From Porphyridium purpureum (taxonomy: Eukaryota), in assembly GCA_008690995.1 (NCBI GenBank), contig VRMN01000017.1:248001-268812 (forward strand): DNA of 20,812 nt. The letters are read 5' to 3'. A program made the position numbers and the translations under genes. Position 1 is the first letter of the stretch. Every line of letters begins with the position of its first letter. Below the pieces are notes generated by a model. The model worked only from the letters and a program-made list of their open reading frames with translations. It had not been told where the DNA came from and did no database searches. Positions 3,601 through 20,812 of this stretch are shown here, piece after piece.

Positions 3601-6600
3601 GAGAACATGCGCGGTGCTTTTGGCGCCTGGTTCACCAGCAAATTGACCGTGCGAACGCCGGCCTCGTTGCGAAGCTGGAGGTTACGCGCCTGCAACAAAC
3701 CCTCCCAACGCGAAATGAAGCCGCGCTCCTCTTCTGAGCCCTGAGGTAACGCACCAACCGGCCCGTTAAAGCTGATGATTAGCGTACCGATCGGCTCCTG
3801 CTCCTCCTCCTTCTTTTCCTTCGTCCACTCTGCCGCAAAGTCATCAATGATCGAAGGGAGCTTGTCTTGTGCGGTCGCCATCGAATCGCACGCCACCAGT
3901 CGCCCAAGCCGCATGGGCGAGCCCCGTACAATGTCTGCGTACGAAAACCGCCACGTTGCCACAATGCCGGAATCTGTGCGCTCGATGTTCAAAGCGTGGA
4001 TAACATGCGCACGGTAAACGCGGCGAATGTACACTTCAAGTGCAGCGCGGGCGACTTGCGCGTCCATGTCCAGGAAGAGTGAGCAAAGGAGGTCGACCGA
4101 CACACTCAGCGCACGCGACTTGGCAATCTCATCGAGTGCCGTAGAGTCGTTTCCCTTTGACATGATAAACTGGCGCACGTCTGCTAACCGCGAGTTGAAG
4201 TCTGGCGTGCGCAGTGCAGTCAGCAGCTGACCCGCTGCAACTACCACATCTCCATAGTTCTGGCTCTTCAGCTTCGTAAGAGCGGTCAAAGCGGCGTCGA
4301 GCTCCGGAGACAAAAGTGTGTCGTTCGGAAAGCGGTCCGGAAGCGTTCCTAGCTGGCGCAGAAGCGAGAGAACAAGCTCCGCGCGCCGCGGCAGTGTCAG
4401 GTGCGCTGCGATCATTTGGATTGCTGCCGCGTCGCTACCGGCGCTCTTCTTGATTGCCAAAATCGAATCATTGAGCGCGCGTCCGTCAAAATGTTCTTCG
4501 ACGCGAACAAATTCTTCGATGAGCGGCACGAGCCGAGAGATAATGTCGCATGCCGTGACTGGGTCTTCGATCGACTCTTCTGCTGAGCCAGCGTTTGAGT
4601 CCACCAACTGCTGCAACGCCGGGCCAACGCTTCCTTGGAAACCGTCTAGGATCAGCCGGAGCTTGTACGCCGCGATATCCACCGCATAGGTGCCAGCGCC
4701 TGTGCCCGCCGCGCCCATGCCAAGAGCAAGGACGTCACGGCCTTCGGGTTTGCGAATGTTAAGGACACCATCAAAGTCAGACACAGGCGACGCCTTGGAT
4801 GGGTCGTCGAGATCAAGCCGCGCAAGCAGGTCACCTGTCTTGATGATGGAGCCGGCGGCAAGCTCGTGGCGCAGCATGCCGGTCTCGCCTGCTGAGAGCT
4901 GCATAATCATCTTCATGGCCTCGAGCTCCACGTAAGGCTCGCCCTTCTTCACCGCATCACCATCCTGTTTGAGAAAGCGCACCACCTTGCCCGTTACGTC
5001 GCTGCGCAATTCAGATGGGTCAAAGATCGTCGGAATCATTACGGTGCTCCCATTGATAATCATGCGCAATCCGAGGGGCTCCTCTACGCCAGAAACTGAA
5101 TACACATTCTCACCCATGGTGCACAGTAGGCTCTGGTCCGGCTGCTCACGCACTTTGACGTCTAGCGACCACGTGCTCATCGAGCTTCCAGCTTTTGCCG
5201 CGGCCCCACTTGCAGAGCTTCCACTCGCGCTATCAAGCAAATTCAGGCGGAGCACGTCTGGCGCCAATCGGCCCACCTCAAAAGTGAAGCGGAGGCCCAT
5301 GTAGGTGATTTCGACGCTAAACTTGTTCAGAGCGTTCAACTCGGACACGAACGTGCTCTGACCACGCGCAAGCTGCTCAAGGCATGCGAGTTTGCCGCGT
5401 TTGATGGTGTCATGGGCGCGATACACAGCTGCAGCAAGAACGGCAGTGTCGCGATCCAGCTCAAATTTGACCGACTTTTCGCGGATCAGACGATCAAGCC
5501 ATGAGGTATCGATAGTATTCTGCTTGAATTCATCAGTCTCAAGCAGTTGCACCAAGTATTCGACCGGATTGCGAATCTCGCCGCGCGCTTCAAGCTCCTT
5601 GAGTGCCAGCACCAATGCCTTGCGCGCATCCTCACGGTTTGCGCCGCTGGCAAAAACATGCCCAAACTGCGAATCGGCAAACTCGTGAATCCCACCCTGC
5701 GCACCGACTGAAAAGTAGCCCCAGACGTCCGGACTGCTCTGAAATCGCACGCGCTCCACACGACCGCTCGTTGGCTTGAATCCTTCGTCCGGGTTTTCGG
5801 CGGTGATGCGAGCTGCGATGACGTGGCTGCGAAGCGGCTGGTACATTTCGGTCATAAAGTCGATCGGCGAGTCGCCGTATGCATCTGTGCCATCACGTCC
5901 GTACAGTCGTCGGATATCGGGCACGCGCGATAGTGCAATGCCCATCGCTACCTGCAGCTGCGTGGCGGGCATGTTCACGCGTGTGAGGCCCTCCGTCACT
6001 GGATGCTCGACCTGAAGCCGCGGGTTGAGCTCGAGGAAGAAAAACTTTTGCGTGTCCGCATTGTACAGGTACTCCACGGTTCCGGCTCCGCGGTAGCCGA
6101 TCGATTGCGTTAAGCGCTGCGCTGCGCGCTCCATTTCCCGGAAGACCGAAGGCTCCACGATAACGGGCGGTCCCTCTTCGAATATTTTTTGAAAGCGGCG
6201 CTGCGTGGAGCAGTCGCGCCCGTTCAGCGCTACCGCGTTGCCGTACTCATCTCCTACGATCTGGACCTCAATGTGTCTCGCGTTCTTGCACAACTGCATC
6301 ATGAAGATCGGACTCCCGGGTACTTCATTTACCACCTGTTCATAATTCGAGCGCAGCTCTGTTTCGTTCGCAGACATGCGAATGCCCTTGCCACCGCCGC
6401 CTTCGGACGCCTTTGTCATGATCGGGTAGCCGATGCGCTCGGCCACTGCGATCGCCTCGTCAACGTTGTGCACCATCGCTTGCTCAAATATCTCACGCGG
6501 GATCGTGCCGTCCTCTGACAGCTCTGCCGTCAGTCCATCGCCCGACCACGGGATGCTGGGCACGTTGGCCGTTTGTGCCAAAATGTTCGCGCCAATCTTG

Positions 6601-7163
6601 TCGCCCAGCACGGCCATGACGGGACCCGTCGGCCCGATGAACTGGATGCCCAGCTTGGCGAGTGAATTAGGCAATCGAGGGTTCTCAGATGCGTGGCCCC
6701 AGCCCGGCCACACTGCGTCGACGCCCTCGCGCTTCGCCATCGCACAGATCAACTCCACGTTGGCATAGTTGTTACGGTTTGGGCCGCCGGGTACCTCCAC
6801 AAAAGAATCTGCGAGGCGCACAAACTCGGCGTTGGCGTTGAGATCCTCTGGTGTGGCCATCGCAACAAATTCAATCGCTCGCTCCGAGCCTATTTCATAG
6901 TACGCCCACTTGCGCATGGACAGAATGGCCTTGGTGGCCGCCATGCCGTTGTTCGCGATCAGCACTTTCCGAATGACGCGCTTGCCGCCGCGAGCGTCCA
7001 CGTACTCCTGGAGCTGCTTCAGGTTTGTCTGATTCCGCGGCGACGCCGGCGGCGACGCTGATGCCGGTTTTTCCTCCACGCTAGCGCTCATGCGCAACAC
7101 CCCTGGCGCCGCGCCCCGCACGCCCGCCGGCTGATTGCCGCTGGTCCCTGCGCGCTTTCTCAT
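612..7163 (-). CDS. ACC1: Homomeric multidomain acetyl-CoA carboxylase (BC-BCCP-central-CT), plastid-type; true start probably further upstream (7306 or 7336-7342)
   Basis: Uninterrupted 2183-aa ORF. Biotin carboxylase motifs KVLIANNG, WPGWGHASENP, KASEGGGGKGIR, RDCSTQRRFQKIFEEGP and FLELNPRLQVEHPVTE; biotin attachment motif EAMKM (Lys codon 4911-4913); carboxyltransferase motifs ANDVTFQAGSFG, GVENLRGSGLIAGETS, AGQVWYPDSAFKTA and ANWRGFSGG. Confidence 0.97.
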   Translation of the reverse strand: MRKRAGTSGNQPAGVRGAAPGVLRMSASVEEKPASASPPASPRNQTNLKQLQEYVDARGGKRVIRKVLIANNGMAATKAILSMRKWAYYEIGSERAIEFVAMATPEDLNANAEFVRLADSFVEVPGGPNRNNYANVELICAMAKREGVDAVWPGWGHASENPRLPNSLAKLGIQFIGPTGPVMAVLGDKIGANILAQTANVPSIPWSGDGLTAELSEDGTIPREIFEQAMVHNVDEAIAVAERIGYPIMTKASEGGGGKGIRMSANETELRSNYEQVVNEVPGSPIFMMQLCKNARHIEVQIVGDEYGNAVALNGRDCSTQRRFQKIFEEGPPVIVEPSVFREMERAAQRLTQSIGYRGAGTVEYLYNADTQKFFFLELNPRLQVEHPVTEGLTRVNMPATQLQVAMGIALSRVPDIRRLYGRDGTDAYGDSPIDFMTEMYQPLRSHVIAARITAENPDEGFKPTSGRVERVRFQSSPDVWGYFSVGAQGGIHEFADSQFGHVFASGANREDARKALVLALKELEARGEIRNPVEYLVQLLETDEFKQNTIDTSWLDRLIREKSVKFELDRDTAVLAAAVYRAHDTIKRGKLACLEQLARGQSTFVSELNALNKFSVEITYMGLRFTFEVGRLAPDVLRLNLLDSASGSSASGAAAKAGSSMSTWSLDVKVREQPDQSLLCTMGENVYSVSGVEEPLGLRMIINGSTVMIPTIFDPSELRSDVTGKVVRFLKQDGDAVKKGEPYVELEAMKMIMQLSAGETGMLRHELAAGSIIKTGDLLARLDLDDPSKASPVSDFDGVLNIRKPEGRDVLALGMGAAGTGAGTYAVDIAAYKLRLILDGFQGSVGPALQQLVDSNAGSAEESIEDPVTACDIISRLVPLIEEFVRVEEHFDGRALNDSILAIKKSAGSDAAAIQMIAAHLTLPRRAELVLSLLRQLGTLPDRFPNDTLLSPELDAALTALTKLKSQNYGDVVVAAGQLLTALRTPDFNSRLADVRQFIMSKGNDSTALDEIAKSRALSVSVDLLCSLFLDMDAQVARAALEVYIRRVYRAHVIHALNIERTDSGIVATWRFSYADIVRGSPMRLGRLVACDSMATAQDKLPSIIDDFAAEWTKEKKEEEQEPIGTLIISFNGPVGALPQGSEEERGFISRWEGLLQARNLQLRNEAGVRTVNLLVNQAPKAPRMFSFNYCENYAEDALRRDMRTSFPYLLELSRLSENFELQRLPIYLRNAQLWLGTEKRDQEVALTRPRTQSLFLRGISHSDMSVPGVMEKVLLILMDQLDAGIVNPRVDPTATCNMFLNVLQPVQGAAYIEQTGGPTKKLPPAHTVRHLRADMEALMVKYAERLIRLRVENIELKIRVPFEADSTGNEVQQAVRLWASPTGGYAGAQSQRTFFKTDAFAEIQNPITGVTEQYVPYEEQQIAQGQQLNASASRPYYTKSGPEQLKRRAARRVGSTYAYDFMALFEIALVKQWSRARTRSTNPPVTPQFGSLMRTRELVLDKETQELSPVERAPGQNEIGMVAWLITLKTPEYPSGREIVVIANDVTFQAGSFGVAEDEFFFKASEYARVRSIPRIYLSSNSGARIGLVESLKPMFKVQFRDESNPTLGFEYLYLSEKDYNELPEGTVIAERRICAGSGEKGEEVRYVLKDIIGTAHGIGVENLRGSGLIAGETSRAYDESFTLSYVTGRSVGIGAYLVRLGQRTIQQTNGPIILTGFQALNKLLGRDVYSSLDQLGGPQIMVPNGVTHELVENDQEGVIAILDWLAYVPATARGSPPILAGPPADPIGRDVEFVPPKGGGATYDVRDMLRGSVQPDGKVLRGFFDAGSFKEYLAGWGRSVVVGRARLGGIPYGVIAVETRTFDRVIPADPANAASRETLEPQAGQVWYPDSAFKTAQAIEDFSGENLPLMIFANWRGFSGGTRDMFGEVLKFGAMIVDALRKYDMPVSIYLPPNAELRGGAWVVVDPTINEKMMEMYADTQSRGGILEPPGICEVKFRAPDQLKAMHRLDTELLSLDARLENATEEKDRAEIKAAISKRENLLLPIYLQIAHEFADLHDRSGRMLAKGVIRDVVEWKRSREYFFWRTKRRLRELELRKHVAKVNAALDWLAATEVMRALVGGDAVWLDDRAFLKWFDENSANLDALLAPVRLDAVRASISELLGGLPDADRAEVLKRLES

Positions 7164-7413
7164 CCGCCCGCTGGTCGGCGCGGTGAACGACGCGACCCGC
7201 TCCGCCGCCTTTCATCCATCGCGCGCGCTGCCTGGAGCGCGCCGCCGCCACGCAGCATATTGCCACAATACGCTTGCAAGGGCGGCTGGAACTGAAACGC
7301 CAGCATCGCCGCCGCACCACCCTCCCTCCTCCTCATCATCATCTTCTCTCCATCCCCCCCTGTCGGCGGCATCATGCACCGTGGCCCGCACCCCACCTCC
7401 CACCACACACGCT

Positions 7414-7954: not shown

Positions 7955-8188
7955 CTTTGCGCTGCGGTGTTTCCCTCATCTTTCTTCTTCTTGCTTGCTT
8001 GACTAACCACCTATTGTGGTAGTGTTTCTATCATTCGGTCATTCCCCAACTCTACCCTCGATCACGCTTTGGAAAAGCGACTGTGGCAGCGCGACAGCCA
8101 AGACGCTGATCGGCGCCGCGAACATCGAGAAGGAAAAAAGAGGCGCTCGAAGCGCAACTGGTGAGCGCGACGCGCCCAGTGTTTGGTC

Positions 8189-11100
8189 ATGGAATATGAC
8201 ATGGATAGGGCTGCGGGTGCTAGTACCCCAGCAACACCGTCGCCGGCACGCGGTGGTGCAAACGCCTCGGCAACCCGCCTTGGCGCGGCAGCAAGTGCGC
8301 GGCGCGAGTCCGCGCGCGAGGAAACGAAACGAGAGATGGCGGCGATGCTGAATGCGGCATACGCCCAAATGCATCGCCAACTCTCGGAGGAATTCGGCGC
8401 CAAGATGGCGACCGAACTGAATACCCGGACGGCGATTGTTCAGAGTGAGCTCGCCGAGCTGCGGAGCGAGAACGTTCGTCTGAGGGCGCTTCGCGATGGA
8501 TCCGGTGGAAGTGGCGCTTTGCCGAGCTGCATGCGCCCTGCGGCCATGCTGTACTATGGCGGCGAGCGATCCACTGCGGCCATTATGACCTGGACGGCAG
8601 CAGCGCGTTCGCGGGTGTACAACCCGGCGCGCTCGGATTGGCGGTCGCAGGGCCGTCTTTGGACGGAAACCGAGGAAGAGGAAGCAGTGTCGACGCTTTC
8701 GACTCACCTCTTCGGATTGGCGCAACTCTGGTACCAGGCATTACAACCTGATCAGAGACCCACCTCGGTAGAAGAGTTTCTGCTCGCGCTTCAGCGGCGC
8801 TTCGAGCCCAAAGAAACAGAAAATGACGTGCGGGATGAACTGCAAAAGATGAAGAAGGGTGCAATGAGTGTCCAAGATTTTGAAGCTGCATTTAGTGAAG
8901 TTTGTCTGCGTATACCAAATTTGGTAGACAAAGATAAACTTCACTATTTTACAGAATCTCTTGACACTTCTATTGCCACTCACGTAGCGCTTCACTTCCC
9001 TCCCACCTATGACGACGCTTTGCGTTTGGCTTTAGTTGCCGACAAAGTCATATTTAAGCGTGGTCGAGACCAGCAGCCCATCACAGCACGCACGTACCCG
9101 TCAGCCATGCAGCCTGCATACCACCCCCAGATGAACTATAACCAGCATGGTCCGGTGCCAATGGACTTGGGTACCGCCAGCGGCAGCAGCGCACGGGTGC
9201 ACGGACGAGGATACAACGGCTTCCAGCGGGATCGCTCGAACGAGTATCAACAGCAACAGCATGACCAATGGTCACCAGCTGGACCGCAGCGGAACCTGCG
9301 TGCGAATCATGCAGAGCGGTACGCGCAGAGCCGCGCGGACGGACGAGACGGCGGCTGGCGAGAGCCGAGCACGCATGGTTGGAACCGTGGTGGCGGCCAG
9401 AACGACGCGCGTGGGCGCGGACAGAAGCGTGGCGCACCGCAACGAGGCGGTGCCAGTAGACCACGACCGCGACAGACGCCGAAGTCGCAACAAGATGGCA
9501 AGAAGAGTAATCAGCGTGGGCGCTATTACTGCCATCGGTGCTCCGTGTGGGGGCCAGCGACGCACAACTGTGCAGACAGGCGCGATGATCGCGATGCCAA
9601 TCTCGGCGGAGCCGAGTTGATGACCGCCAGTGCGGGCAAAGGGTTGCTCAAGGTGAATGCTTGGGTGAACGGCCGGGCGATGAAAGCAGTCATCGATACC
9701 GGCGCAACGCACACCTTTCTGAGCGAGAGCGCATGCGCGATGGTGCGAGTGCGCACAAATAGCACCGCGAATGCCTTGACCATTCGATTGGCAGACGGCA
9801 CGCAGTGCATGTCTCGCGGGCGCGCGACAGTGAATCTGGCGGTGCTGGATTCAGCAGAGAAGCAGCAGGACGTGGTTGTGTACAATGGCCACAATGACCT
9901 CGTGATCGGTCTCGATTGGCTTCGAACCAACCGCTTCGAAATGATCATCGGCGGTCACAGTCTTGGCACAGCCGAGGCTGAGCATGTAGAGCAGGACCAT
10001 TGCGTTCTGCACATGCCGTCGCGCGACACGTGCGGAATATGCAGCGCGGCAAAGCTGCGGCGCGCGCGTGCTGTGAGGCGAGACGACTCGGTTGGCAAAG
10101 AGCGCGGACGAGCGCGCGAGTTCAACGACGTGGTGTCGATTGACATTGTGGATCCCGGACTGGCAGCCGTGGATGGCAGCAGGTGGCTGCTCACTCACCT
10201 CGACGAAGCCACTGGGTGGTTCTCAGCAATTGGGCTGGCGGACAAGTCCGCCGCTGAGTGCATTCGCGGGTTGACGGAGCTGCAGCGCGGACGTGGTGAT
10301 TGGCCACGAGTGTTGCGGTGTGACGAGGGCCGCGAGTTCATGGGCGAATTCGACGGATTCATCGCGGAAAAGGGCGTGAAGAAAGTCACTGGTGTACCTT
10401 ACCGGGCGAACACGCACGCGACGCATGAACGCAAGCATGCAGACTTGAACGGAGCAGTGCGAGCACTGCTGATGCAGTCTGGCTTGCCGACCGCGTGGTA
10501 TCCGTTCGCCGCCGCCTACTTTTGCCTGGCCAGAAACCTCGCCTGGCGCGGCGCAAAGCAGGAGCAGACCAGCTTCGAGCAACGGCTCGGTCTAACATGG
10601 CACAAGCCCATCCCTGCATTCGGGAGCGGCATTCTCATATACGATGAGAGCCGCGGCAAATTTGAGCCGAAAGGCTTGCCTGCAATCGTCGTTGGGTTCA
10701 CGGCACCGAGGCCGAATGACCCGCGGCAGCCCATAAACCTGCTCGCCCTGCCCATTGCCGACTTGCGGCCATCTGCGATCAGGAAGGTCGGCGAATGGAA
10801 GCCACTTCCCGACAAGTGGCCATTGCGACGTTTGGCACTGCGGCCTCCGGATGAGGCCATTACGACGGGTGATCAATGGTCGCGAGCACGCGACAATGCA
10901 CCGGACCGTGCATTCTGCACACAGTGCAAGAAAATAGTCGGTGGGAGCACCGAATGCGAGAAATGCATTTTGGGTCCGGCGCCCAGCCGACGTCACACTG
11001 GTGACGGCGCATGCAGGCAAATGCACTGCCAGTGCTACCGAGACGAGCACGGAAAGCTCGCGTCACGAGCACAGTATCGGCGCATTGAGCTGCCGTGGAG

Positions 11101-13096
11101 TCCGGCCGAGGACATTGCCATATCCGAAGGCATTGCCCGTTTTGGTGAGGACTGGCTTGCCATCGCGGGTAGGCCAGCATTCTTCATGCGCGGCCGCAAA
11201 CCAGCCGGCTTACGCGCGCGCGCAGCGGAACTGGGTGTGCTTCCAGTGCACGCAGCAGCAGCGAGCGACGCGACGCGGAACGACGCGACGCGAGCAGAGA
11301 GTAGCAGCGACGCAATGTATACAAGCGCGGCGACAGGGGGACCAGAGGACGAAGCGGCAGGTCTGGGGGTGGCAGAAGTTGTGGCCACAGCGGTGGCGAT
11401 GGCCACGCCCGCCGGCCGCCATGCATTAGCATCCGAGCTTCGTGCGCTCACCAGCACCGGCGCTCTGCCTTTCCGCCGCACGATGGACAAGGCAGTGGCG
11501 GCGCGCGTTCCGAACGCGCAATTCGTTAAGTTGAAGCTCCTCTTCAACAAGAAGAATTCAGAAATGCCTTCGTCGTTCCACAAGACGAAGTGCCGCATCG
11601 TCGCGCAAGGATGCGTCGTGCTGGACGCCGATGGGCGTCGCGCGCGCGAAGAACCGTACCCTTTTGATCGCCCACCAGGTTTGCTGGCGATCCGCGCCTC
11701 GATGAGCATGGCGCTCATGCTCCATGGACCATCCGCCGACGGCGCCTTCTTCGACGTAACGTGTGCCTACCCCAGTGCACCATTGGGCGGCCGTCCGACA
11801 TTCGGATATCTGCGCGACCTGGTCCCGGTCGTGAAGGGTCTAGTCAGCGAAGCCGACTACAGAAAGATGGCCGCATGCAGCGAGCCTGTCGTGGAGCTAC
11901 CGCAGGCTCTGTACGGAATGAAAAGGAGCGGCAGCGACTTCAGCCACGACGCTCGCGAGCGTGTCCGGCGGCTTGGATGGCAAGAATCCAACGCGGACAA
12001 GAACCAGTACTGGCGCCGCGACGCGAACGGCAGCATGCTCACGCTGAGCATGTACGTCGACGATGGCGCACTCTTCGGCAATGCGGATGCGGTACGAGTG
12101 GCGGTCAAACAACTGAAGACCGTCTTCAGAATCGACCAGAAGGTCGAATACATTGCAGACTCGGCGCGTACGCGCCCTATCAAGTATCTCGGCATGCACA
12201 TCTATCGCGACGGCGGCCGATGGATACTGGATTCGGGGGTGTACGCCACCCATGTGGCGAACGGCCACACCGCGGACAACTTGCGCGTGCGCAGCACGCC
12301 ACTCAGCGAGCGGGTCGACGACAATGGACCCGGCGGGCGCGCGTGCCCGACAAACAAGCGAACAGTGATTGGCCAACTGCTGTGGCTCAGCCGAACCACG
12401 CGAGCAGACATCGCTTATGCCACGGCGCATGTGGCGCGTTATGTCGACCGGTGGGGGCCAAGCGCGGATCGCGCGCTCGACGAGATCGTCGGGTATCTGA
12501 AGAAGCATGCGGACGTCTGTCTGCAATACGACATACCCGCGACAGGAAGTCGCGACGTTCGGTTGCACGCGTGGGCTGATGCCGACTTCTCGGCACCGTC
12601 ATCCACGAGCGGCGCCGTGCTCTTCATATCGAATGGCAGATGCCGACACCTTGTAGACTGGACCAGTCGGCGCCAGCGGCGCGTCAGCACCTCGACGACC
12701 GAGGCTGAGTTGGTAGCGCTGCACGACGCAGCGCAAGGCAGCGTGTTCCCAGTGGCGACACTGGCGGAAGAACTTTTGAGGCGCTGGCCTCCGATCGTTG
12801 TGCGGTGCGACAACGAGTCGACTTTGCGCGCGGTGGAGCGCGGCCACAGTGACCGGCTACTGCATGCGCCAAAGATGCAGCGCATCTCTCTGAGATGGTT
12901 GCACGAGATAGCAGCGGACGGACTCGTCAAGTTCGTCTATGTCGCTACGCGCGACAACATCGCTGACGGCTTGACGAAGCCGATTGCCACCGACGTGTTT
13001 CGCGGCCATGCATGTTACCAATGCTGTGCCTTTATTCTCTCTCTCTTCTTCTTCTTTCTTACCTCTTCTGTCTCCGAGCAAGACCTGACCGGCTAG
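8189..13096 (+). CDS. Gag-Pol polyprotein of element A: Gag, Zn-knuckle-like motif, aspartic protease, integrase, Cys-rich module, Myb-like domain, RT, RNase H; last 27 aa are read-through into LTR B
   Basis: First ATG at 8189. Protease DTGATH (9695); integrase HCVLHMP..CGIC (9998) and D10142, D10322, E10427; copia-type RT KCRIVAQG, FDVTCAY, QALYGMKRSG, YVDD (12053), YLGM; copia-type RNase H WADADF, WTSRRQ..VSTSTTEAE, CDNES, NIADGLTKP. Confidence 0.92.
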   Translation: MEYDMDRAAGASTPATPSPARGGANASATRLGAAASARRESAREETKREMAAMLNAAYAQMHRQLSEEFGAKMATELNTRTAIVQSELAELRSENVRLRALRDGSGGSGALPSCMRPAAMLYYGGERSTAAIMTWTAAARSRVYNPARSDWRSQGRLWTETEEEEAVSTLSTHLFGLAQLWYQALQPDQRPTSVEEFLLALQRRFEPKETENDVRDELQKMKKGAMSVQDFEAAFSEVCLRIPNLVDKDKLHYFTESLDTSIATHVALHFPPTYDDALRLALVADKVIFKRGRDQQPITARTYPSAMQPAYHPQMNYNQHGPVPMDLGTASGSSARVHGRGYNGFQRDRSNEYQQQQHDQWSPAGPQRNLRANHAERYAQSRADGRDGGWREPSTHGWNRGGGQNDARGRGQKRGAPQRGGASRPRPRQTPKSQQDGKKSNQRGRYYCHRCSVWGPATHNCADRRDDRDANLGGAELMTASAGKGLLKVNAWVNGRAMKAVIDTGATHTFLSESACAMVRVRTNSTANALTIRLADGTQCMSRGRATVNLAVLDSAEKQQDVVVYNGHNDLVIGLDWLRTNRFEMIIGGHSLGTAEAEHVEQDHCVLHMPSRDTCGICSAAKLRRARAVRRDDSVGKERGRAREFNDVVSIDIVDPGLAAVDGSRWLLTHLDEATGWFSAIGLADKSAAECIRGLTELQRGRGDWPRVLRCDEGREFMGEFDGFIAEKGVKKVTGVPYRANTHATHERKHADLNGAVRALLMQSGLPTAWYPFAAAYFCLARNLAWRGAKQEQTSFEQRLGLTWHKPIPAFGSGILIYDESRGKFEPKGLPAIVVGFTAPRPNDPRQPINLLALPIADLRPSAIRKVGEWKPLPDKWPLRRLALRPPDEAITTGDQWSRARDNAPDRAFCTQCKKIVGGSTECEKCILGPAPSRRHTGDGACRQMHCQCYRDEHGKLASRAQYRRIELPWSPAEDIAISEGIARFGEDWLAIAGRPAFFMRGRKPAGLRARAAELGVLPVHAAAASDATRNDATRAESSSDAMYTSAATGGPEDEAAGLGVAEVVATAVAMATPAGRHALASELRALTSTGALPFRRTMDKAVAARVPNAQFVKLKLLFNKKNSEMPSSFHKTKCRIVAQGCVVLDADGRRAREEPYPFDRPPGLLAIRASMSMALMLHGPSADGAFFDVTCAYPSAPLGGRPTFGYLRDLVPVVKGLVSEADYRKMAACSEPVVELPQALYGMKRSGSDFSHDARERVRRLGWQESNADKNQYWRRDANGSMLTLSMYVDDGALFGNADAVRVAVKQLKTVFRIDQKVEYIADSARTRPIKYLGMHIYRDGGRWILDSGVYATHVANGHTADNLRVRSTPLSERVDDNGPGGRACPTNKRTVIGQLLWLSRTTRADIAYATAHVARYVDRWGPSADRALDEIVGYLKKHADVCLQYDIPATGSRDVRLHAWADADFSAPSSTSGAVLFISNGRCRHLVDWTSRRQRRVSTSTTEAELVALHDAAQGSVFPVATLAEELLRRWPPIVVRCDNESTLRAVERGHSDRLLHAPKMQRISLRWLHEIAADGLVKFVYVATRDNIADGLTKPIATDVFRGHACYQCCAFILSLFFFFLTSSVSEQDLTG

Positions 13097-13316
13097 CCCG
13101 GGCAGGCGCGTCGCCTTTTTATACCCTTACTTCCGCCAGGGACAGCAAGGCGCCACGAGAAATGACAATGCAAATCATTGGCATTTCTGCGCGCGTCTAG
13201 AAGGTTCTGGAACCTCTAGAAGCTTCTAGAAACGGTTAAACGGTCTACCGGTTTAGCGGCTTACCGGTTTCGGACTAACCGAACCGTTCTAGGTGACTGG
13301 GGTCGAACGGATAACA
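13013..13316 (-). repeat. 3' LTR of element B (304 bp)
   Basis: Termini TGTTACC... and ...GGATAACA, directly adjacent PPT, minus-strand TATAAAA at 13117-13123, and the same layout as the LTRs of element C. Partner LTR not in the window. Confidence 0.82.
13199..13232. promoter_or_regulatory. Two perfect tripartite heat-shock elements (nGAAnnTTCnnGAAn) in U3 of LTR B
   Basis: aGAAggTTCtgGAAc at 13199-13213 and aGAAgcTTCtaGAAa at 13218-13232, about 75-110 bp upstream of the LTR TATA box. Confidence 0.75.
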
Positions 13317-13330
13317 TCTCCCCCCCTCTT
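13317..13330 (-). other. Polypurine tract of element B
   Basis: Minus strand AAGAGGGGGGGAGA immediately precedes the TGTTA start of the LTR. Confidence 0.88.
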
Positions 13331-13435
13331 GACTCGACGTCTCGGCGAGACTCCAAACTAAGTTGCATTCTTGGCTCGAGGAACCCGCGCTCCGGGAGAA
13401 AACCTCTGCCTAGCAAACTTCTCACAATTCCCAAG

Positions 13436-13902
13436 TCATTCAGAGTCAGACTCCTCGATAATTTTCAACAAGTCTGGCTCAGAATCGGACGCCGGCATTT
13501 CGTCGGGTACTTCTTCATCATTTTCCCCTACCATGTAGTCTTCGCGTCCATAGTATGGCTTCAGATGCTGGGTCGGAAAAACATCATGACAAGCCACACC
13601 CTCGGGCAAAATCACTCGGTAAGCATGCGAGCTTACCTTCTCAATGACAGGCACCGGACCAAGAAACTTTGGTGCCGCCAAATCACTCTTGTTCGGCCGC
13701 AGTTGCGGCGCTGTGACCAACACTTGATCACCAACTTGAAACTCCCGGGCATCCTTGCGTCGATCGAAGAACTTCTGCATTCTCCCTTGGGCTTCGATCA
13801 AATTGTCGCGGACTTCTTCATGGACTTTGCACAGGCGAAACCAGTGCTCCGCCACGTCCTTCGTCTGCCCGTCGCGCGCAGGCCTCCACCCTTCGCTCGG
13901 TG
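13436..13902 (-). pseudogene. C-terminal part of the gypsy integrase of element B, disrupted by element D
   Basis: EVRDNLIEAQGRMQKFFDRR...FQVGDQVLV...APKFLGPVPVIEKVSSHAYRVILP...HDVFPTQHLKPY is the GPY/F-SH3-like integrase tail. The listed ORF's N-terminal 43 aa (14032-13903) are antisense LTR D sequence. Confidence 0.85.
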
Positions 13903-14182
13903 TGCTATGCTGTACACCCCATGCACTGTACACATGTAGCACCTGTACTCCATAGTACAGTCCACCCTCCAAAACCCCATCCAAACCCACCACTGAGTTA
14001 GATCCAGGGCTTTGCGGCAGTATATAATCCACGCCGCCGTGCGGCCCGAGCTAAACAAAAAGTAAAGGAGGTATCGAAGTGCGAGGAGAGGTTGGTGTGC
14101 CGTTGGTGTCGGGGTTCGATCCGGGCGGGTGCCTGTAGGTGAGAGAGAGGGGTTGTAGTGGCTGCGGGTGTAGTACACAGCA
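13903..14182 (+). repeat. Putative 5' LTR of element D (280 bp)
   Basis: TG...CA with an imperfect 17-nt terminal inverted repeat (TGCTATGCTGTACACCC versus the reverse complement of the end, TGCTGTGTACTACACCC, 13/17). TATATAA at 14021-14027. Begins where the integrase-like sequence of B stops. Confidence 0.7.
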
Positions 14183-14323
14183 TAATTCTAGAATTAGCGT
14201 TGCCCCATTCTTGAGTAATTTCTTGTGGGAGCGCGCGGGCCGGTCTGGTTGGTGGTCGGGTGGCCCGGAACCAGGGCGACGTGGGGGAGAGGTGCCAGGT
14301 CGGGTGGCTCTGGTGTCTCGTTT

Positions 14324-14615
14324 TGTCACAAACGGAGCTTCTTTTCTTTACTTCTTCTTCTCTCCTCCTCTACCTCCTCTCTTCTTTCTAGCCTTTTTTC
14401 TTCGTTCGGCTGCCGCTCGCTCTGTTTTATACCCGCCTTCCGGCGCCGCAACGGCTTGCCCGGCGGGTTCAGCCCTCGGAATAACCCAATCCCGCGGCCC
14501 TCAACATAACTCAGCTGTACCACACGGTACACCCACAGCTGTACTTTCAGTACACTTAGGGACTGTACCTCTGCGTACTCGCTGTACTGAGACCTGCATC
14601 AGGTCGCTCGCGACA
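14324..14615 (-). repeat. 3' LTR of element C (292 bp)
   Basis: TGTC...GACA; direct repeat of 20260-20551 with a single difference (T14387 vs C20323). Confidence 0.97.
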
Positions 14616-14630
14616 TCCCACACTTCCCGC
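14616..14630 (-). other. Polypurine tract of element C (imperfect)
   Basis: Minus strand GCGGGAAGTGTGGGA directly precedes the 3' LTR. Confidence 0.7.
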
Positions 14631-15136
14631 TTATCCACAGCGACCATTGCGATAGCGTGTTCTAAGCCCACGCGCCGCATGCATAGCAGCCGTTCCCGTG
14701 CCGCTCAACAGGTTCAAGCACAATGAGCTGAGATCGAGCGGACGAAGTACAGTGTAAGCTGACAGGGTACAGTGCCAGCAACAGGGCCAAAAAAATAAGG
14801 TGGCCGGTGCCGCTCACAAGTGACGCCCACTGACAAGACCCCGTACAGGCTGCCATCCCCCTCCCCCGCTAACCTTAAAGGAAAGGTGCGCTGTTACGGC
14901 TCTGCCCAATGTCACCCCGGGGAATTACCCTAGCCACGGATCCCCAGCATTTCACAGGGGCAGTTTTCTCTAATCAGGGAGTGTCTAAGATCCTCTTCAA
15001 TTCTCGTTTGCCAAACTGCCGAAATTTAGAGTATATACACCCCCAAATATGGACTCAGGTACAGTATTACTGTACTTCACTGTACACAGACTGTACTTCA
15101 TTTTGTTCTTTATCATTCGTTCTACCGTCTTGCTGC

Positions 15137-15277
15137 GGGCACGGCTCCTTCTTTACCGTCCAGCCATGGACACAGCTCCTTCTTTAATGTCCAGCAACGG
15201 ACACAGCTCCTTCTTTATCGTCCAGCAACGGACCCAGCTCCTTCTTTACCGTCCAGCCACGGACACTCCATCTTTAT
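15137..15277. repeat. 31-bp tandem repeat, about 4.5 copies, in the 3' UTR of element C
   Basis: Units start at 15137, 15168, 15199, 15230 and 15261 (partial); approximate consensus GGACACAGCTCCTTCTTTACCGTCCAGCMAC. Confidence 0.92.
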
Positions 15278-15325
15278 TCGAACATTTTTTTTTTGAGAGC
15301 AGCGACGGCCGATAGCCACCCAGCG

Positions 15326-18300
15326 TCAAACACCTTCTGCCATGTCTCGGTACGCGGCTACCAGCATGGGCGGGAGCGTCTTCTCAGCCTCCCATGTGTC
15401 GCCTCGCTTCCCCATACCCCGCCATCTCACCTTGTACTCGCGGCCTCCACCCGCAGCCCGATCTTCCACAATTGCCTCCACCACCCAACTTGCATCTCCT
15501 CCAACGAACACGTTCGTGCCGGCCATGTCTACCACGTCCGGGTCTGCCTTGTGCAAGCGGTTCACATGCACGAGCTGGCCATGGAGCTCTGCGTCATCTC
15601 GGCCGTTTGCGCTGACCACGACTGCGTGAACCCCGTTCCGCTTTGTGATGCGGAAAGGTCCGAGCCACGGCTTTGTCAGCTTGCGACCCTGCCTCGTACT
15701 TGGGCACCACACGTATACGATGTCGCCTTCGGCAAACGTTTCCTTGTTCCGATGAATGTTTCTGTCATAGTACCTTGCAAACCTCTCGGCGTTCTCCGAC
15801 ATCTTATTCCCGGCGAGCCGATAGGCGCGCGCCAGCTGTGCGGAGATATCTTGCGGTTGCTGGCCCCCTTCAACCGCTCGCGGTCCGGCCATGCTTGCCC
15901 AGTCCTTGGCTGGCGACCCAAACATCATTTCGTACGGCGAGAAGCCGGTGGCTGCGTGGCGCGACGTGTTGTACGCGTAGGTTACAACGGACAGCCACCT
16001 ATCCCAGTCGCGCGAGCTTGCACTGACGTACGCCGACAGCATCTTGCACAGGGTCGCATTGAAGCGCTCCACCCTTCCGTTCGTCTGCGGGTGGTAGGCT
16101 GTCGTCATGAGCCTCCGGATTCCGAGTCTGGCGCAAAGCGACGTGATCACCTCACCGACAAAGTTTGAGCCCCGGTCGGACAAGATGGACTCCGGCGGGC
16201 CAAAGACAGTCAACCACGTCTGCAGGAAACTCCGCGCCACGGTCTCTGCCTTCTCGTCCGGGAGCGCCACGGCAACCGCCCATCGCGTCCAAGCATCCAT
16301 CATGACGAGCACCTTGATATTTCCCGTTCGCGTCTCCGGACTGATGGTGAGGATGTCCATGCCTACAATTTCAAAGCGTCTGGACGCCGAGTACTGCACC
16401 ATCGCCGCGTTCCGGCGGGGTGGTGGTGCCTTGCGCGCTATGCACTCGTGGCAGCACCGAACGAACTTCCGAACGTCTTCTGTCCACCCGGGCCACCACC
16501 ACTGCGCGTCGGCTATCCTCGCCGCCGTCCTCGCCGTCCCCATGTGAGCCGACAGCGGGGCTCCGTGATAGACATTCAGAACTGCCGACACAAGGGCGTC
16601 AGGGACCACCCGCCTGGGCATGTCTTTCAGCAACGCAAACACAATCCCGTCTTCGTCCACGATATACTCAGGGAAGGAGTACTTTGACGCGGGGCCTGAT
16701 AGGTTCTTGAGCTCAGCGCAGATCTGCTCGTCCTCTGCGTACGCTGCTCTGAGCTCGTCGTCCGTGGGCACAGCGTATAGCGCCCCACTGTCTTGCGTGT
16801 CCCGTACCTCCCGGACCTCTTCTTCCGTGCCAGTGTCCAGAGGAGTACGCGATAGCGCATCGGCCACGATATTCGCTGCGCCTGGCTTGTGCTTCACGTC
16901 AAACTCGAAATCTTGCACGCGCATGATCCACCTTGCCGTCCGACCCCGTGGCTCTTTCTGGCGAAGCAGCCACAGCAGCGCCGAGTGATCCGTCACGAGA
17001 ATGAACTTCTTGCCGAACAGATAGTGCCTGAACTTTTCCATGGATAGTATGGCACCCAAGCACTCTTGCTCCGTGACGCTGTAGTTCAGCTCTGCGCCTC
17101 GGAATGCCCTTGAGTAAAAGGCCACCGGGCGCCGCTGGTCCCCTTGAAGCAAGACCGCGCCAATGCCCACCTGGCTCGCGTCGACTTCAAGAACCATCTC
17201 GGCGGCCGGATTGAATGCAACCAGGACTGCGCTACCGTCGTCCATCGGATCACCTAGCGCATGGCGTAGGTCTATGAACGCGGCGCGCTGGTCGTCCCCG
17301 AATCTGCTCGCCCACTCTGCGCCACCAGCCGTCTTCCGGTGGAAGCCACCTTTCTTGTCCGTCAATCCGAGCCCAGTCAGCGCCCGCCTCAGCGGGAGGG
17401 CGCGCTCCTCGAAGTTCGGTATGAAGTTACGAAACCAGCCGACCAGTCCCAGGAACCGCTGCAGGTCCTTCGCTTCTTCTGGCTCTGGCCACTCCAGGAT
17501 TGCCCGCGTCTTATCTACCCCAGGCCGCAAACCTTGCGGGCCAATGCGATGGCCCAGAAACTGTACTTCTGCCAGAGCAATCTTGCACTTGCGGGCCGAC
17601 AGTGTAAGCCCCGACGCCGCGAACCTTCGCAAGATCTGACGAAGTCCTTCCACATGTTCCTCGAAGGTCTCATGTCCCACTGTCAGATCGTCAATGTAGA
17701 TCTGCGCGTGTGCATGGCGCATAGGGCCCAAAATCCGGTTGTTGAGTCGCTGGAAAGTTGGCGGACTATTGCAGCAGCCCTGCGGCAGACGCGTGTATTC
17801 AAATAGCCCCTCACGTGTGATCATGGCAGTCAAATGCATGCTTTCTGGCGCAAGGGGCACCTGGAAAAACCCGTCCTTGAGATCGAGAGCGCTCTTCCAT
17901 CGGCGCCTCGAAAGCCAGTCGAGCATCTCCCCAACGTCTGGGATTGGGTACCTGTCCTTGATTGTGATTGCATTGAGCGGGCGAAAGTCGGTAGTCATCC
18001 GATACGATCCATCTGGTTTCCGGATCAGTACGTTGGCTGCTGCACACTCCGACGTGCTCGGCTGCAGCACTCCCTTAGCGACAAGGGCTTCGACCAGGCT
18101 GCGCTCGGCCTCGTTCTCGGCCTCTGAGCGCCTGCGCACTTTGGCCACCAGAGGGCGCTGGCCCGGTTCGACAGTGATGGTGTGTTCCACCAGGTCCGTC
18201 AATCCCATGGACGGCCTGAACAGCACCCACGCCTCAGCTAGGACGTCGCCGACTCGTTTGCGCTGCTCGGGCTCGAGATGCCCAAGCTCGATGGCCGCGG

Positions 18301-18934
18301 CGTTGCGCAGGGCTTCCTCTTTCTCGGCCGCGTGCTTCTGCTCCAGCTGGGCGATTCGACGATCAATCTCGCCCGGTTCTTCAAGATGACCGATGTGTTC
18401 TGGGCCCGGCAGACCACTCACTTGCTCGAACGGTAGAGAACCTCCACGCTTGAAGAACACAGCTTGACCTGGCAGCACGGCCGCGACTTCTCGAACCTGG
18501 AAGTCCCAGCCGATCAAGAGATCTGTCTTGAGGTGTTCCGCCACTCGGACCGTCTCGCACGGAAAAACGAAAGACCCGAGATGCAGATCCAGAAACCCAA
18601 CGCTGACTCTGCCCAAGGAGGCGCCGTCCGGCCCTCGCGCTCCCCAACTTGACGGCTGCGTTTTCAAGCCGAGCCGGTCAGCCACGCTCGGGCTCACCCA
18701 TGTTGAGTTTGCGCCCGTGTCCAGAACTGCCAGTGCAACCACTGCCTGGCCACATGCGGTGAGCTTCACCCGCAACGTCGGACTGTTGTCCGCACGCACG
18801 GCTAGCTCCGAGTCGCCGTCTTGTTCCTTGGCGTACGCCGCGCCTTGCAACTCTGCCTCACCTGAGGCATCGCCCGGCTCCCACCATTCCATGCAGGGGG
18901 CAGCTACTGCTTGCTGCCCCACTGCCCGTTTTTT
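15326..18934 (-). CDS. pol: Pol of element C (protease, RT, RNase H, integrase, chromodomain), expressed by -1 frameshift from gag
   Basis: Part of ORF 15326-19078. Motifs LDTGAN; DFRPLN, LDLKDGFFQ, PQG, YIDD, FLGH; DASQVGIGAVL, TDH, ADALSR; H..H..C..C, SDRGSNF, HPQTNGRVER, WLGPF; chromodomain WVVEAIVEDR...EYKVRWRG...DTWEAEKTL (about 15350-15487). Confidence 0.95.
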   Translation of the reverse strand, partial: KKRAVGQQAVAAPCMEWWEPGDASGEAELQGAAYAKEQDGDSELAVRADNSPTLRVKLTACGQAVVALAVLDTGANSTWVSPSVADRLGLKTQPSSWGARGPDGASLGRVSVGFLDLHLGSFVFPCETVRVAEHLKTDLLIGWDFQVREVAAVLPGQAVFFKRGGSLPFEQVSGLPGPEHIGHLEEPGEIDRRIAQLEQKHAAEKEEALRNAAAIELGHLEPEQRKRVGDVLAEAWVLFRPSMGLTDLVEHTITVEPGQRPLVAKVRRRSEAENEAERSLVEALVAKGVLQPSTSECAAANVLIRKPDGSYRMTTDFRPLNAITIKDRYPIPDVGEMLDWLSRRRWKSALDLKDGFFQVPLAPESMHLTAMITREGLFEYTRLPQGCCNSPPTFQRLNNRILGPMRHAHAQIYIDDLTVGHETFEEHVEGLRQILRRFAASGLTLSARKCKIALAEVQFLGHRIGPQGLRPGVDKTRAILEWPEPEEAKDLQRFLGLVGWFRNFIPNFEERALPLRRALTGLGLTDKKGGFHRKTAGGAEWASRFGDDQRAAFIDLRHALGDPMDDGSAVLVAFNPAAEMVLEVDASQVGIGAVLLQGDQRRPVAFYSRAFRGAELNYSVTEQECLGAILSMEKFRHYLFGKKFILVTDHSALLWLLRQKEPRGRTARWIMRVQDFEFDVKHKPGAANIVADALSRTPLDTGTEEEVREVRDTQDSGALYAVPTDDELRAAYAEDEQICAELKNLSGPASKYSFPEYIVDEDGIVFALLKDMPRRVVPDALVSAVLNVYHGAPLSAHMGTARTAARIADAQWWWPGWTEDVRKFVRCCHECIARKAPPPRRNAAMVQYSASRRFEIVGMDILTISPETRTGNIKVLVMMDAWTRWAVAVALPDEKAETVARSFLQTWLTVFGPPESILSDRGSNFVGEVITSLCARLGIRRLMTTAYHPQTNGRVERFNATLCKMLSAYVSASSRDWDRWLSVVTYAYNTSRHAATGFSPYEMMFGSPAKDWASMAGPRAVEGGQQPQDISAQLARAYRLAGNKMSENAERFARYYDRNIHRNKETFAEGDIVYVWCPSTRQGRKLTKPWLGPFRITKRNGVHAVVVSANGRDDAELHGQLVHVNRLHKADPDVVDMAGTNVFVGGDASWVVEAIVEDRAAGGGREYKVRWRGMGKRGDTWEAEKTLPPMLVAAYRDMAEGV
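18897..18934 (-). promoter_or_regulatory. Programmed -1 ribosomal frameshift signal
   Basis: Slippery heptamer A AAA AAC (18934-18928) in the gag frame, a 7-nt spacer, then an 8-bp stem GGGGCAGC/GCTGCCCC. Pol lies in the -1 frame. Confidence 0.85.
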
Positions 18935-20202
18935 GGTCCGTGGCTCAAGCCACCGTCCGAATACGGCGCGCGTGGTGCTCCACCTTGGCCCGCGGGGCGA
19001 TGCACTCCCCCATCGGCCCTTGGCCATCCATTGCGGCAATCCCTCTTCAAGTGTCCAAGTTCGCCGCACTGCCAGCACTGCGGCTGTCCGGGCAGAGCAG
19101 TCGGAAGGGCTTGGCGCTTGGCCTGTGGCCCAAAGCTCTCAACCTGGTATACATCCTCTGCGTACAGGCCGTAGTCACGACCGCGCTTCTGGATCGTCGT
19201 GCCCGGGACCTCGCCTATGCGGCCCACTCTCTCGCGGCCAAGCGGGCGTTGCTGGCCAAACGGAGGAAGCGAGCGACTCGGTAGACCCTTCAAACCATCT
19301 TCACCGACGTGGTCTACCAGAGCTGAGCGCAGCTTGGTGAACGAGACGCTCACGCCGATCATGCGGACCGTGTTCTTCAAGAACGCGGAGTCCATGGCTT
19401 CGATCAACACGTCCTTCTTGTCCTCGTCGTCCATCTTGAGCCCGTCAGCCTTGGTCTCCAGGTCGTTCAGAAAGACACTCAAGCTGGCTTTCCCCGGTTG
19501 GAACTTCATGCGGCGGAGCTCGGCTTTCAAAGCCTGGCGGTGCTCGACATTGAAAAACATGGACTCCAGTGCCTTCCACACACGGTTCGCTGCGCCGGGC
19601 CCTGCCGCATCGACATCTTTGATCACGGCTTGGTACCTTGACACCGCGGGCCCACCAAAGCAAGCGCTGATGTGCTCCGCGACATTGTCCCTTGCGAGGC
19701 CAAGTGTGTCCGCGTGCGACTCCCAGCAGGTCCGCGACGCGAAGAAATGAGCGTCACCTGGGGCCTTGATAAGAACTTGAGCACTGCGGACCGCCTCGCG
19801 AAAGGTTGCTGCGAGCTTCAACTGCTCCTCCCAGAACGACCGATCCGTGGTACGGCCCGAGGTCTGCGCCGAGTTGCGGCTGTGCGCCTGGGCCTCCAGT
19901 TCAGCAACGCGAGCGCGAAGGGCCATCACTTCGGCTCCGCCCGGTGCAGCTAGGTCTCCAACCGGGACAACGGACTCTGCGTCGGCTGCGGCTTCCAGGT
20001 GACCTGGCGTCCCCTGCTCATTGTCGACAGCTTCACCCTGGTGCTCCACGACAGGCCCGTCTTCTGGCGCTGGGCCCCCGGCACGAGCGGCCCCTGCTTC
20101 GATGATCGCGGATCCGCTGCGTGGCTCCCCAAGTCCTGCCACAACTGCTGCCTCGCGAGGCCCACCTGCCTCTCCAACTCCTGCCCCACGCCCACGCGCC
20201 AT
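18904..20202 (-). CDS. gag: Gag of element C
   Basis: First ATG at 20202, 58 nt from the 5' LTR. Coiled coil LRARVAELEAQ, capsid-like helical region, and canonical Zn knuckle CWQCGELGHLKRDC. Confidence 0.92.
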   Translation of the reverse strand: MARGRGAGVGEAGGPREAAVVAGLGEPRSGSAIIEAGAARAGGPAPEDGPVVEHQGEAVDNEQGTPGHLEAAADAESVVPVGDLAAPGGAEVMALRARVAELEAQAHSRNSAQTSGRTTDRSFWEEQLKLAATFREAVRSAQVLIKAPGDAHFFASRTCWESHADTLGLARDNVAEHISACFGGPAVSRYQAVIKDVDAAGPGAANRVWKALESMFFNVEHRQALKAELRRMKFQPGKASLSVFLNDLETKADGLKMDDEDKKDVLIEAMDSAFLKNTVRMIGVSVSFTKLRSALVDHVGEDGLKGLPSRSLPPFGQQRPLGRERVGRIGEVPGTTIQKRGRDYGLYAEDVYQVESFGPQAKRQALPTALPGQPQCWQCGELGHLKRDCRNGWPRADGGVHRPAGQGGAPRAPYSDGGLSHGPKNGQWGSKQ

Positions 20203-20259
20203 CCTATCCCACTCCCAACCCCACACTTCCTCGCTCCCACACGACCAATTTGCAAATTA

Positions 20260-20551
20260 TGTCACAAACGGAGCTTCTTTTCTTTACTTCTTCTTCTCTC
20301 CTCCTCTACCTCCTCTCTTCTTCCTAGCCTTTTTTCTTCGTTCGGCTGCCGCTCGCTCTGTTTTATACCCGCCTTCCGGCGCCGCAACGGCTTGCCCGGC
20401 GGGTTCAGCCCTCGGAATAACCCAATCCCGCGGCCCTCAACATAACTCAGCTGTACCACACGGTACACCCACAGCTGTACTTTCAGTACACTTAGGGACT
20501 GTACCTCTGCGTACTCGCTGTACTGAGACCTGCATCAGGTCGCTCGCGACA
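20260..20551 (-). repeat. 5' LTR of element C (292 bp)
   Basis: Direct repeat of 14324-14615; minus-strand TATAAAA at 20361-20367. Confidence 0.97.
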
Positions 20552-20716
20552 GTTGAAGTCGGGTGGCTTTGAAAAGATAGTTCTGTTTGGTTTTTTGAAC
20601 TTGTGTGGGAAGCCGGGTGGCTTCAGCACACGCATTGCACACTTTTGCGTTTGATTTCTAGGGACTGACTGATTATCTGATTTATGTCCGGACGCCTGTC
20701 GGATATCTTGGGGGAA

Positions 20717-20812
20717 ATGGCCGGGCGTCCAACTGTAGCGAGCGTCACGGCTGATGTGGCGGCACTCCAGGGACGTGTAGAGCTGATCGCATCCGGCCAG
20801 GAGCAGCTGCGC
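20717..20812 (+). CDS. Probable N-terminus of the gag of element D (runs off the window)
   Basis: MAGRPTVASVTADVAALQGRVELIASGQEQLR, open to the window end, coiled-coil-like, located after the D leader. Confidence 0.5.
   Translation, partial: MAGRPTVASVTADVAALQGRVELIASGQEQLR

Follow-up and report, generated by a model that had tools for sequence, protein, structure and literature searches.

The window, that is, the whole stretch of 20,812 nucleotides analysed, carries four LTR elements nested one inside another between positions 8165 and 20812. Element A (8165-13096, plus strand) is interrupted at 13013 by the LTR of element B, which in turn (13013-13902, minus strand) is interrupted at 13903 by element D, and D is interrupted by element C at 14323/20552. 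The pol of A has the Copia order (protease, integrase, RVT_2), and the gag upstream of it matches both Ty3_capsid and Retrotrans_gag; within the frame of this gag, two directly abutting 27-nt arms that are 85% complementary form an inverted repeat at positions 8893-8946. The 3' LTR of B (13013-13316, minus strand) contains a 16-bp palindrome (13215-13230) lying within longer imperfect inverted repeats, and nowhere in the window is transcription higher than over the B family, with a depth in the thousands in run X24. At 612-7211 on the minus strand there is an uninterrupted frame of 2199 aa resembling what we take to be a multidomain acetyl-CoA carboxylase. No tRNA gene was found in the window.

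Element C belongs to the chromodomain Gypsy elements of Porphyridium purpureum. It is young and transcribed, and it has the following features:

14320 to 14323, plus strand: left target-site copy, GTTT
14324 to 14615, minus strand: 3' LTR
14616 to 14628, minus strand: polypurine tract GGGAAGTGTGGGA, adjoining the 3' LTR
15326 to 19138, minus strand: pol frame, 1270 aa from stop to stop, overlapping gag in the -1 frame
18904 to 20202, minus strand: gag, 432 aa, with a CCHC zinc knuckle
20232 to 20241, minus strand: TGTGGGAGCG, a candidate packaging motif, also found in the leader of D at 14224-14233
20236 to 20247, minus strand: TGGTCGTGTGGG, the first TGG after the 5' LTR, at offset 12
20246 to 20259, minus strand: 14-nt self-complementary site TAATTTGCAAATTG, +1 to +14 after the 5' LTR, with its core at 20247-20258
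20260 to 20551, minus strand: 5' LTR, 292 bp, TG...CA, one mismatch to the 3' LTR
20262 to 20263, minus strand: polyadenylation position within the LTR in family C transcripts, from T-tails in reads
20361 to 20367, minus strand: TATA-like box in the LTR, a candidate role suggested by its sequence
20552 to 20555, plus strand: right target-site copy, GTTG

In Pfam searches, the pol of C shows protease, RT, RNase H, integrase and chromodomain in the Gypsy order, with gag upstream, and the chromodomain at the integrase's C-terminal end (PF00385, E 9e-09) scores above the cut-off. Paired TG...CA LTRs, a polypurine tract and a target-site duplication (at 3 of 4 bases) are likewise those of a Ty3/Gypsy element. 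The initial annotation had called the element intact and young, and this holds: its LTRs differ at 1 of 292 bases and both gag and pol are open, the only blemish being the target-site duplication, which agrees at three bases out of four (GTTT/GTTG). The RT-RNase H region of C is 100% identical to P0001, named Porphyridium purpureum Ty3 Gag-Pol in its sources; 8 of the 12 members of this cluster are near-identical models of 1608 aa, and one sequence is present on 4 contigs. The empty site of C has been seen as a joint of 14321 to 20553 in contigs of runs X5 and X8, which places the insertion in the leader of element D. The gag and pol of C overlap by 235 nt (18904-19138) in the -1 frame, and the database models fuse both into 1608 aa; since no splice joint between them is listed in the RNA reads, the fused model more likely hides a -1 frameshift. 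In the 3' non-coding region of C, positions 15127-15281 hold a 31-bp unit repeated in tandem about five times. The 10-nt match between the leaders of C and D (TGTGGGAGCG) was reached in 26 of 2000 shuffles and has no counterpart in L002, the metagenome relative described below; G-rich words like it recur in the leader and the polypurine tract of C, and GGAAGTGTGGG is present in both.

On the sense strand of C, the 5' LTR (20551-20260) ends in ...GTGACA and is followed directly by TAATTTGCAAATTG and then by GTCG. As first read, this is a palindrome of 12 bp next to the LTR that can be extended to 14 nt by a U-G pair: positions 20247-20258 of the plus strand are AATTTGCAAATT, a perfect 12-bp palindrome, and TAATTTGCAAATTG forms six Watson-Crick pairs plus the terminal U-G. 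Palindromes of 12 bp are common in the window (11, against 7.5 +/- 2.7 in 100 shuffles). 14-mers of the kind found at the site occupy 7-8 of 20,799 positions per strand, a background of about 3.6e-4 per position; 4 of the 2,894 CA sites of the window are followed by one, and two of these mark where the 5' LTRs of C and D end. When the letters of each 14-mer were shuffled among themselves, palindromes arose at rates of 0.0015, 0.0053 and 0.0051 (set of C, D and L002). The palindrome at the primer-binding position of C is confirmed and is not a product of chance.

Element D carries a palindrome of its own in the same place:

13903 to 14182, plus strand: 5' LTR of D, 280 bp, TG...CA, its ends fixed by reads and contigs
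14183 to 14196, plus strand: perfect 14-bp palindrome TAATTCTAGAATTA, +1 to +14, directly after the CA of the LTR
20684 to 20812, plus strand: start of D gag, 43 aa, 100% identical to P0191, P0192, P0194, P0195 and P0196

The boundaries of the D LTR are given by loose ends at 13902, a contig start at 13903 and a joint at 14182. A homologue search with the 43-aa gag start returned no match; all 43 of its residues are, however, identical to those of five P0013-cluster members, among which P0196 carries pol, and D was placed in the RT phylogeny via the cluster members P0013 and P0196. The third palindrome comes from the metagenome locus L002, in which ACGCGACA is followed by TAAGAAATTTCTTA at a putative LTR end; the contig lacks the 3' LTR, and this end is supported by its reverse complement, which begins with TGTCGCG like the start of the LTR of C. 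The 14-mer of L002 lies 207 nt before a gag start (MVLTRN) and 1,976 nt before RT, compared with 2,018 in C. L002 was picked partly by its palindrome, and its pol is broken. It comes from a metagenome scan with broad patterns that gave 80 loci, three of which (L001, L002 and L021) fall in the clade, L002 alone reaching far enough upstream; scans of viral contigs gave no relatives.

C, the D family and L002 belong to one RT clade (FastTree 0.999, SH-aLRT 97), share 41-49% identity over RT-RNase H and have no alignable LTR similarity. Further P. purpureum families belong to this clade as well, as do metagenome proteins without names, and the clade is separate from the gypsy proteins of fish and plants in the trees, which were built without named reference elements. 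The chromodomain match of the D family is weaker than that of C and below the cut-off, and on the L002 branch neither P0012 nor P0123 gave a chromodomain match. The palindrome comparison has n = 3, the clade families P0003, P0005-P0007 and P0088 lying outside the DNA-level comparison. Across 105 loci, a CA followed by such a 14-mer 1-4 kb upstream of RT occurs at 2 of 9,958 sites; the match other than L002, in L045, was rejected, as it lies inside the gag frame. Self-complementarity is found at none of 13 control junctions of more distant elements, 10 of which have TGG within 0-4 nt; these loci were chosen by eye for a resolved 5' LTR end and include two duplicates, while L011 was dropped for its ambiguous LTR end. 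A further Gypsy element, L022, has an internal region (128-157) that starts with the first nine letters of the D site and lacks TGG; it was rejected as a palindromic relative, being neither palindromic nor inside the clade.

It had been proposed that the letters after the 5' LTR should covary as palindromes in related families, and they do so in the three available. The register +1 to +14 is identical in C, D and L002 in a gap-free alignment at the LTR end, and all 21 of 21 cells are paired, 20 of them by Watson-Crick pairs and the remaining one by G-U. Both sides have changed in four of the seven pairs; the two innermost pairs occur in three forms each, the innermost being G-C, U-A and A-U. 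Complete pairing was reached by 0 of 500 shuffles and slid registers pair at 29-62%, where the shuffle counts ignore relatedness and one covariation control is lenient because the structure was derived from the same three sequences. The innermost pair covaries and cannot close a hairpin, which points to pairing between two molecules. Predicted homodimers have energies of -12.1, -13.6 and -13.0 kcal/mol and cross-family dimers of -0.4 to -2.1, and the 14-mer alone is predicted to form no hairpin in C and D and one of -1.1 in L002. A single-strand hairpin at the site was rejected on the folding predictions for the 14-mers and for longer single strands. In predicted single-strand folds, the sites of C and D are partly paired with their flanks, with nothing unusual in the z values (-0.45, 0.12 and 0.67). 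The covarying 14-nt palindrome at the primer position is real and has been selected in a Gypsy clade to which red-algal families belong, and, from the innermost pair and the folding predictions, the site most likely pairs between two RNA molecules.

In Tf1-type elements, the primer-binding site complements the mRNA's 5' end, which lies in the LTR. C was said to lack any such complement, and a search with the first 18 nt after its LTR agrees: the best match is 5 nt with Watson-Crick pairs and 8 nt with G-U, the latter at the very end of the LTR, and the best duplex between the 14-mer and the LTR (-6.5 kcal/mol) is equalled by 62% of 300 shuffles. Tf1-type LTR priming in C was therefore rejected, the complement being no better than in shuffles. 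The corresponding best matches are 5 and 7 nt in D and 6 and 7 nt in L002. The 7-8 letter cores of the site occur once in element C, and no Rfam match was found in 20100-20600.

As a primer must pair at the edge of the LTR and the only complement of the site in C is the site itself, the site may be its own partner. The model that this suggests is that two packaged genomic RNAs of C would pair over +1 to +14, that the element's own RNase H would cut one strand near +13/+14, and that synthesis from the 3'-OH of the cut RNA would proceed into the partner RNA's LTR, the last two steps by analogy with Tf1. The primer of Tf1 is reportedly made by an RNase H cut, a finding of Levin from 1996. The cut would have to be one-sided and the long 5' tail of the primer trimmed or removed, as otherwise the second strand transfer would fail; this asymmetric cut and the trimming step are unexplained and count against the model. 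Were the plus strand to include a copy of the primer, any change at position i would reappear in mirror image at 15-i, which offers a route to the paired changes, and such mirroring suggests that the unmatched outer pair of C (U1-G14) lies outside the copied part. Self-priming between genomes at the palindrome is the best reading of the site, with about an even chance of being right. That it represents a clade-wide fourth mode of priming, in which a cut packaged genome primes its partner at the palindrome in place of a tRNA, is a tentative proposal whose chances fall a little short of even; the three primer types described for LTR elements are whole tRNA, half tRNA and an LTR-derived self-primer, and 6% of the elements in one survey had no recognised primer-binding site (PMC6317226).

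The nearest published feature, in the source consulted, is the Conserved Hairpin Site of the fungal GalEa Copia elements (2017), where a palindrome stands in place of the primer-binding site, with a mechanism described as unknown (PMC5445492). These elements likewise have no tRNA primer-binding site and carry a palindrome directly after the 5' LTR, for which a primer-binding role was proposed. However, as described there, the GalEa CHSeq1 has 9 nt, is palindromic only with the last A of the LTR and has mostly two fixed sequences, and a second arm 12-41 bp downstream forms a hairpin with it (PMC5445492). C, in contrast, is a Gypsy element of a red alga, its palindrome spans 14 nt from +1 with the last A of the LTR excluded, the central letters vary, and the second arm is absent in C and L002 and weak in D. 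The best downstream partners of the site reach -4.5 kcal/mol in C, -6.2 in D (9 pairs with one mismatch) and -6.4 in L002 (about 50 nt off), far weaker than the homodimers, and do not appear in the 60-nt folds predicted for D and L002. Tf1, Tf2 and Tj1, together with the Tf1-Sushi/Tcn1 elements, resemble C in being Gypsy and tRNA-independent; Tf1 and Tj1 self-prime with the element's own RNA (PMC4600332), and in all of them the primer is described as cut from that RNA in an RNA-RNA duplex at the primer-binding site (PMC4600332; PMC6317226). The site is in these elements non-palindromic and pairs in cis (PMC4600332; PMC6317226), whereas C has no LTR complement of comparable length (about 9-11 nt or more in Tf1/Sushi) and the pairing would be between molecules. 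The dictyostelid Skipper is another chromodomain Gypsy element without TGG or LTR complement, and unconventional priming has been proposed for it, but it has a degenerate polypyrimidine tract instead of a palindrome, according to its description (PMC5006619). Searches of a library of open-access papers returned no description of a palindromic primer-binding site in red-algal or other Gypsy elements.

Two stranded RNA runs cover the whole of element C in sense, with a sense depth at the 14-nt site of 14 (X24) and 2 (X23). At this low depth, the two total-RNA runs show no pile of RNA ends, strand-switch joint or mirrored variant at the site, and no variant letters are listed in 20246-20259 in the reads of X24 and X23 or the contigs of X7 and X12. 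Of the mechanism put forward in the initial annotation, the pairing of the palindromes of two packaged genomes has gained from the covarying innermost pair, while for cleavage and priming no RNA ends or joints were found in the total RNA-seq, a result that at this depth speaks neither for nor against a cut within particles.

The palindrome could instead be a dimerisation or packaging signal only, with something else as the primer. The covariation is explained equally well by this alternative, both it and the dimer energies show pairing between molecules and not priming, and homodimers specific to each family would suit selective co-packaging. It also has precedents in the PAL of Ty1 and the DIS of retroviruses, short palindromes of the 5' leader that pair two genomic RNAs (PMC4974528, PMC5445492). 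These, however, are described as coexisting with a tRNA primer-binding site and as located in a loop or at a distance from the LTR edge (PMC4974528, PMC5445492), and DIS palindromes as lying in a hairpin loop, with such a site present as well (PMC5445492), whereas the palindrome of C occupies the position of the primer-binding site itself. It stands at exactly +1 to +14 in all three families, the sole place where a primer defines the LTR end, and no other primer site was found, whether LTR complement or TGG. A signal for dimerisation alone is unlikely, though it is the main rival to self-priming.

Less probable still is a primer consisting of a short element RNA that starts at the palindrome, in a Tf1-like manner but acting in trans. 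Its first 14-16 nt would pair with the site in the full-length RNA, and such an RNA, lacking a long 5' tail, would remove the trimming problem. Its source could be the downstream product left when the 5' LTR is cleaved at the poly(A) position, or a transcript start at the LTR end. The polyadenylation position fits such a primer: T-tails were found before 20262 in 110 reads of X24 and 19 of X23, which may derive from the 3' LTR of any copy (where the equivalent is 14326-14327) and are not assignable to a 5' LTR. Polyadenylation 2-3 nt before the LTR end means that U5 is nearly absent and that the cleavage position abuts the palindrome, just upstream of it. The TATAAAA box was rejected as a poly(A) signal, which would have placed cleavage near 14400, since the tails were found at the LTR end. 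Downstream products of cleavage that lack a cap normally decay quickly, which counts against a short-RNA primer, as does the lack of any pile of RNA starts at the site at the low depth of these runs.

By the TGG positions and a register test against anticodon-arm rules, priming by a host tRNA, with the symmetry as a by-product, is improbable. In the form of a CCA end placed at the TGG, it would draw on TGGTCGTGTGGG at +13 of C. The LTR edge of C was correctly described as free of TGG, and the first TGG lies at offsets of 12 (C), 43 (D) and 42 (L002), that is, beyond 0-5 nt in all three. The 12-nt spacer in C greatly exceeds the 0-4 nt of the 10 control junctions with TGG, and D and L002 have TAG where C has its TGG at +13, which weakens the idea of a shifted tRNA. 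In the form of a half-tRNA at the LTR edge, it has a known counterpart (PMC6317226; PMC10886601), and one register of L002 fits 4 of 5 anticodon-stem pairs; but the anticodon-loop registers of C and D have at most one stem pair of the 1-4 testable, or none testable, and half-tRNA primers are reported only in Copia lineages in the account of PMC6317226. Moreover, three different tRNAs would each need to be palindromic.

It is very doubtful that the symmetry has its role in DNA, where the linear cDNA or the provirus ends, be it in end processing, in strand transfer or as a dyad bound by a protein. DNA can show a perfect dyad just as RNA can, and Watson-Crick pairs make up 20 of the 21; yet the single departure is a G-U, which is tolerated in RNA, the central eight letters vary from family to family, which speaks against a protein that binds one specific sequence, and priming would be left unexplained. 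Hardly credible, lastly, are chance AT-rich palindromes without function, for which the abundance of 12-bp palindromes in the window and the n of 3 might speak, against a background of about 3.6e-4 per position, own-letter shuffles at 0.0015-0.0053 and one register held in three diverged families.

Self-priming between genomes, if true, would give reverse transcription a start independent of the host and would limit which elements are co-packaged or mobilised. If it were a mode common to the clade, dimerisation and priming would be one step, at a site specific to each family, with mutations mirrored across the palindrome. The paired changes, that of the innermost pair among them, reduce the geometry to one in which two RNAs pair with each other, and since the alga can be cultured and its family C is young, transcribed and present in many copies, a test that breaks and restores the symmetry is within reach.

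The 25 loci on genome contigs from GTDB (L081-L105), which served as junction controls only and stand outside the tree, are eukaryote-type Gypsy contigs in bacterial metagenome-assembled genomes, many of them with tRNA-type sites. Their presence in these bacterial genomes is probably due to host contamination, and L081/L082 form a tandem repeat of about 4.9 kb.
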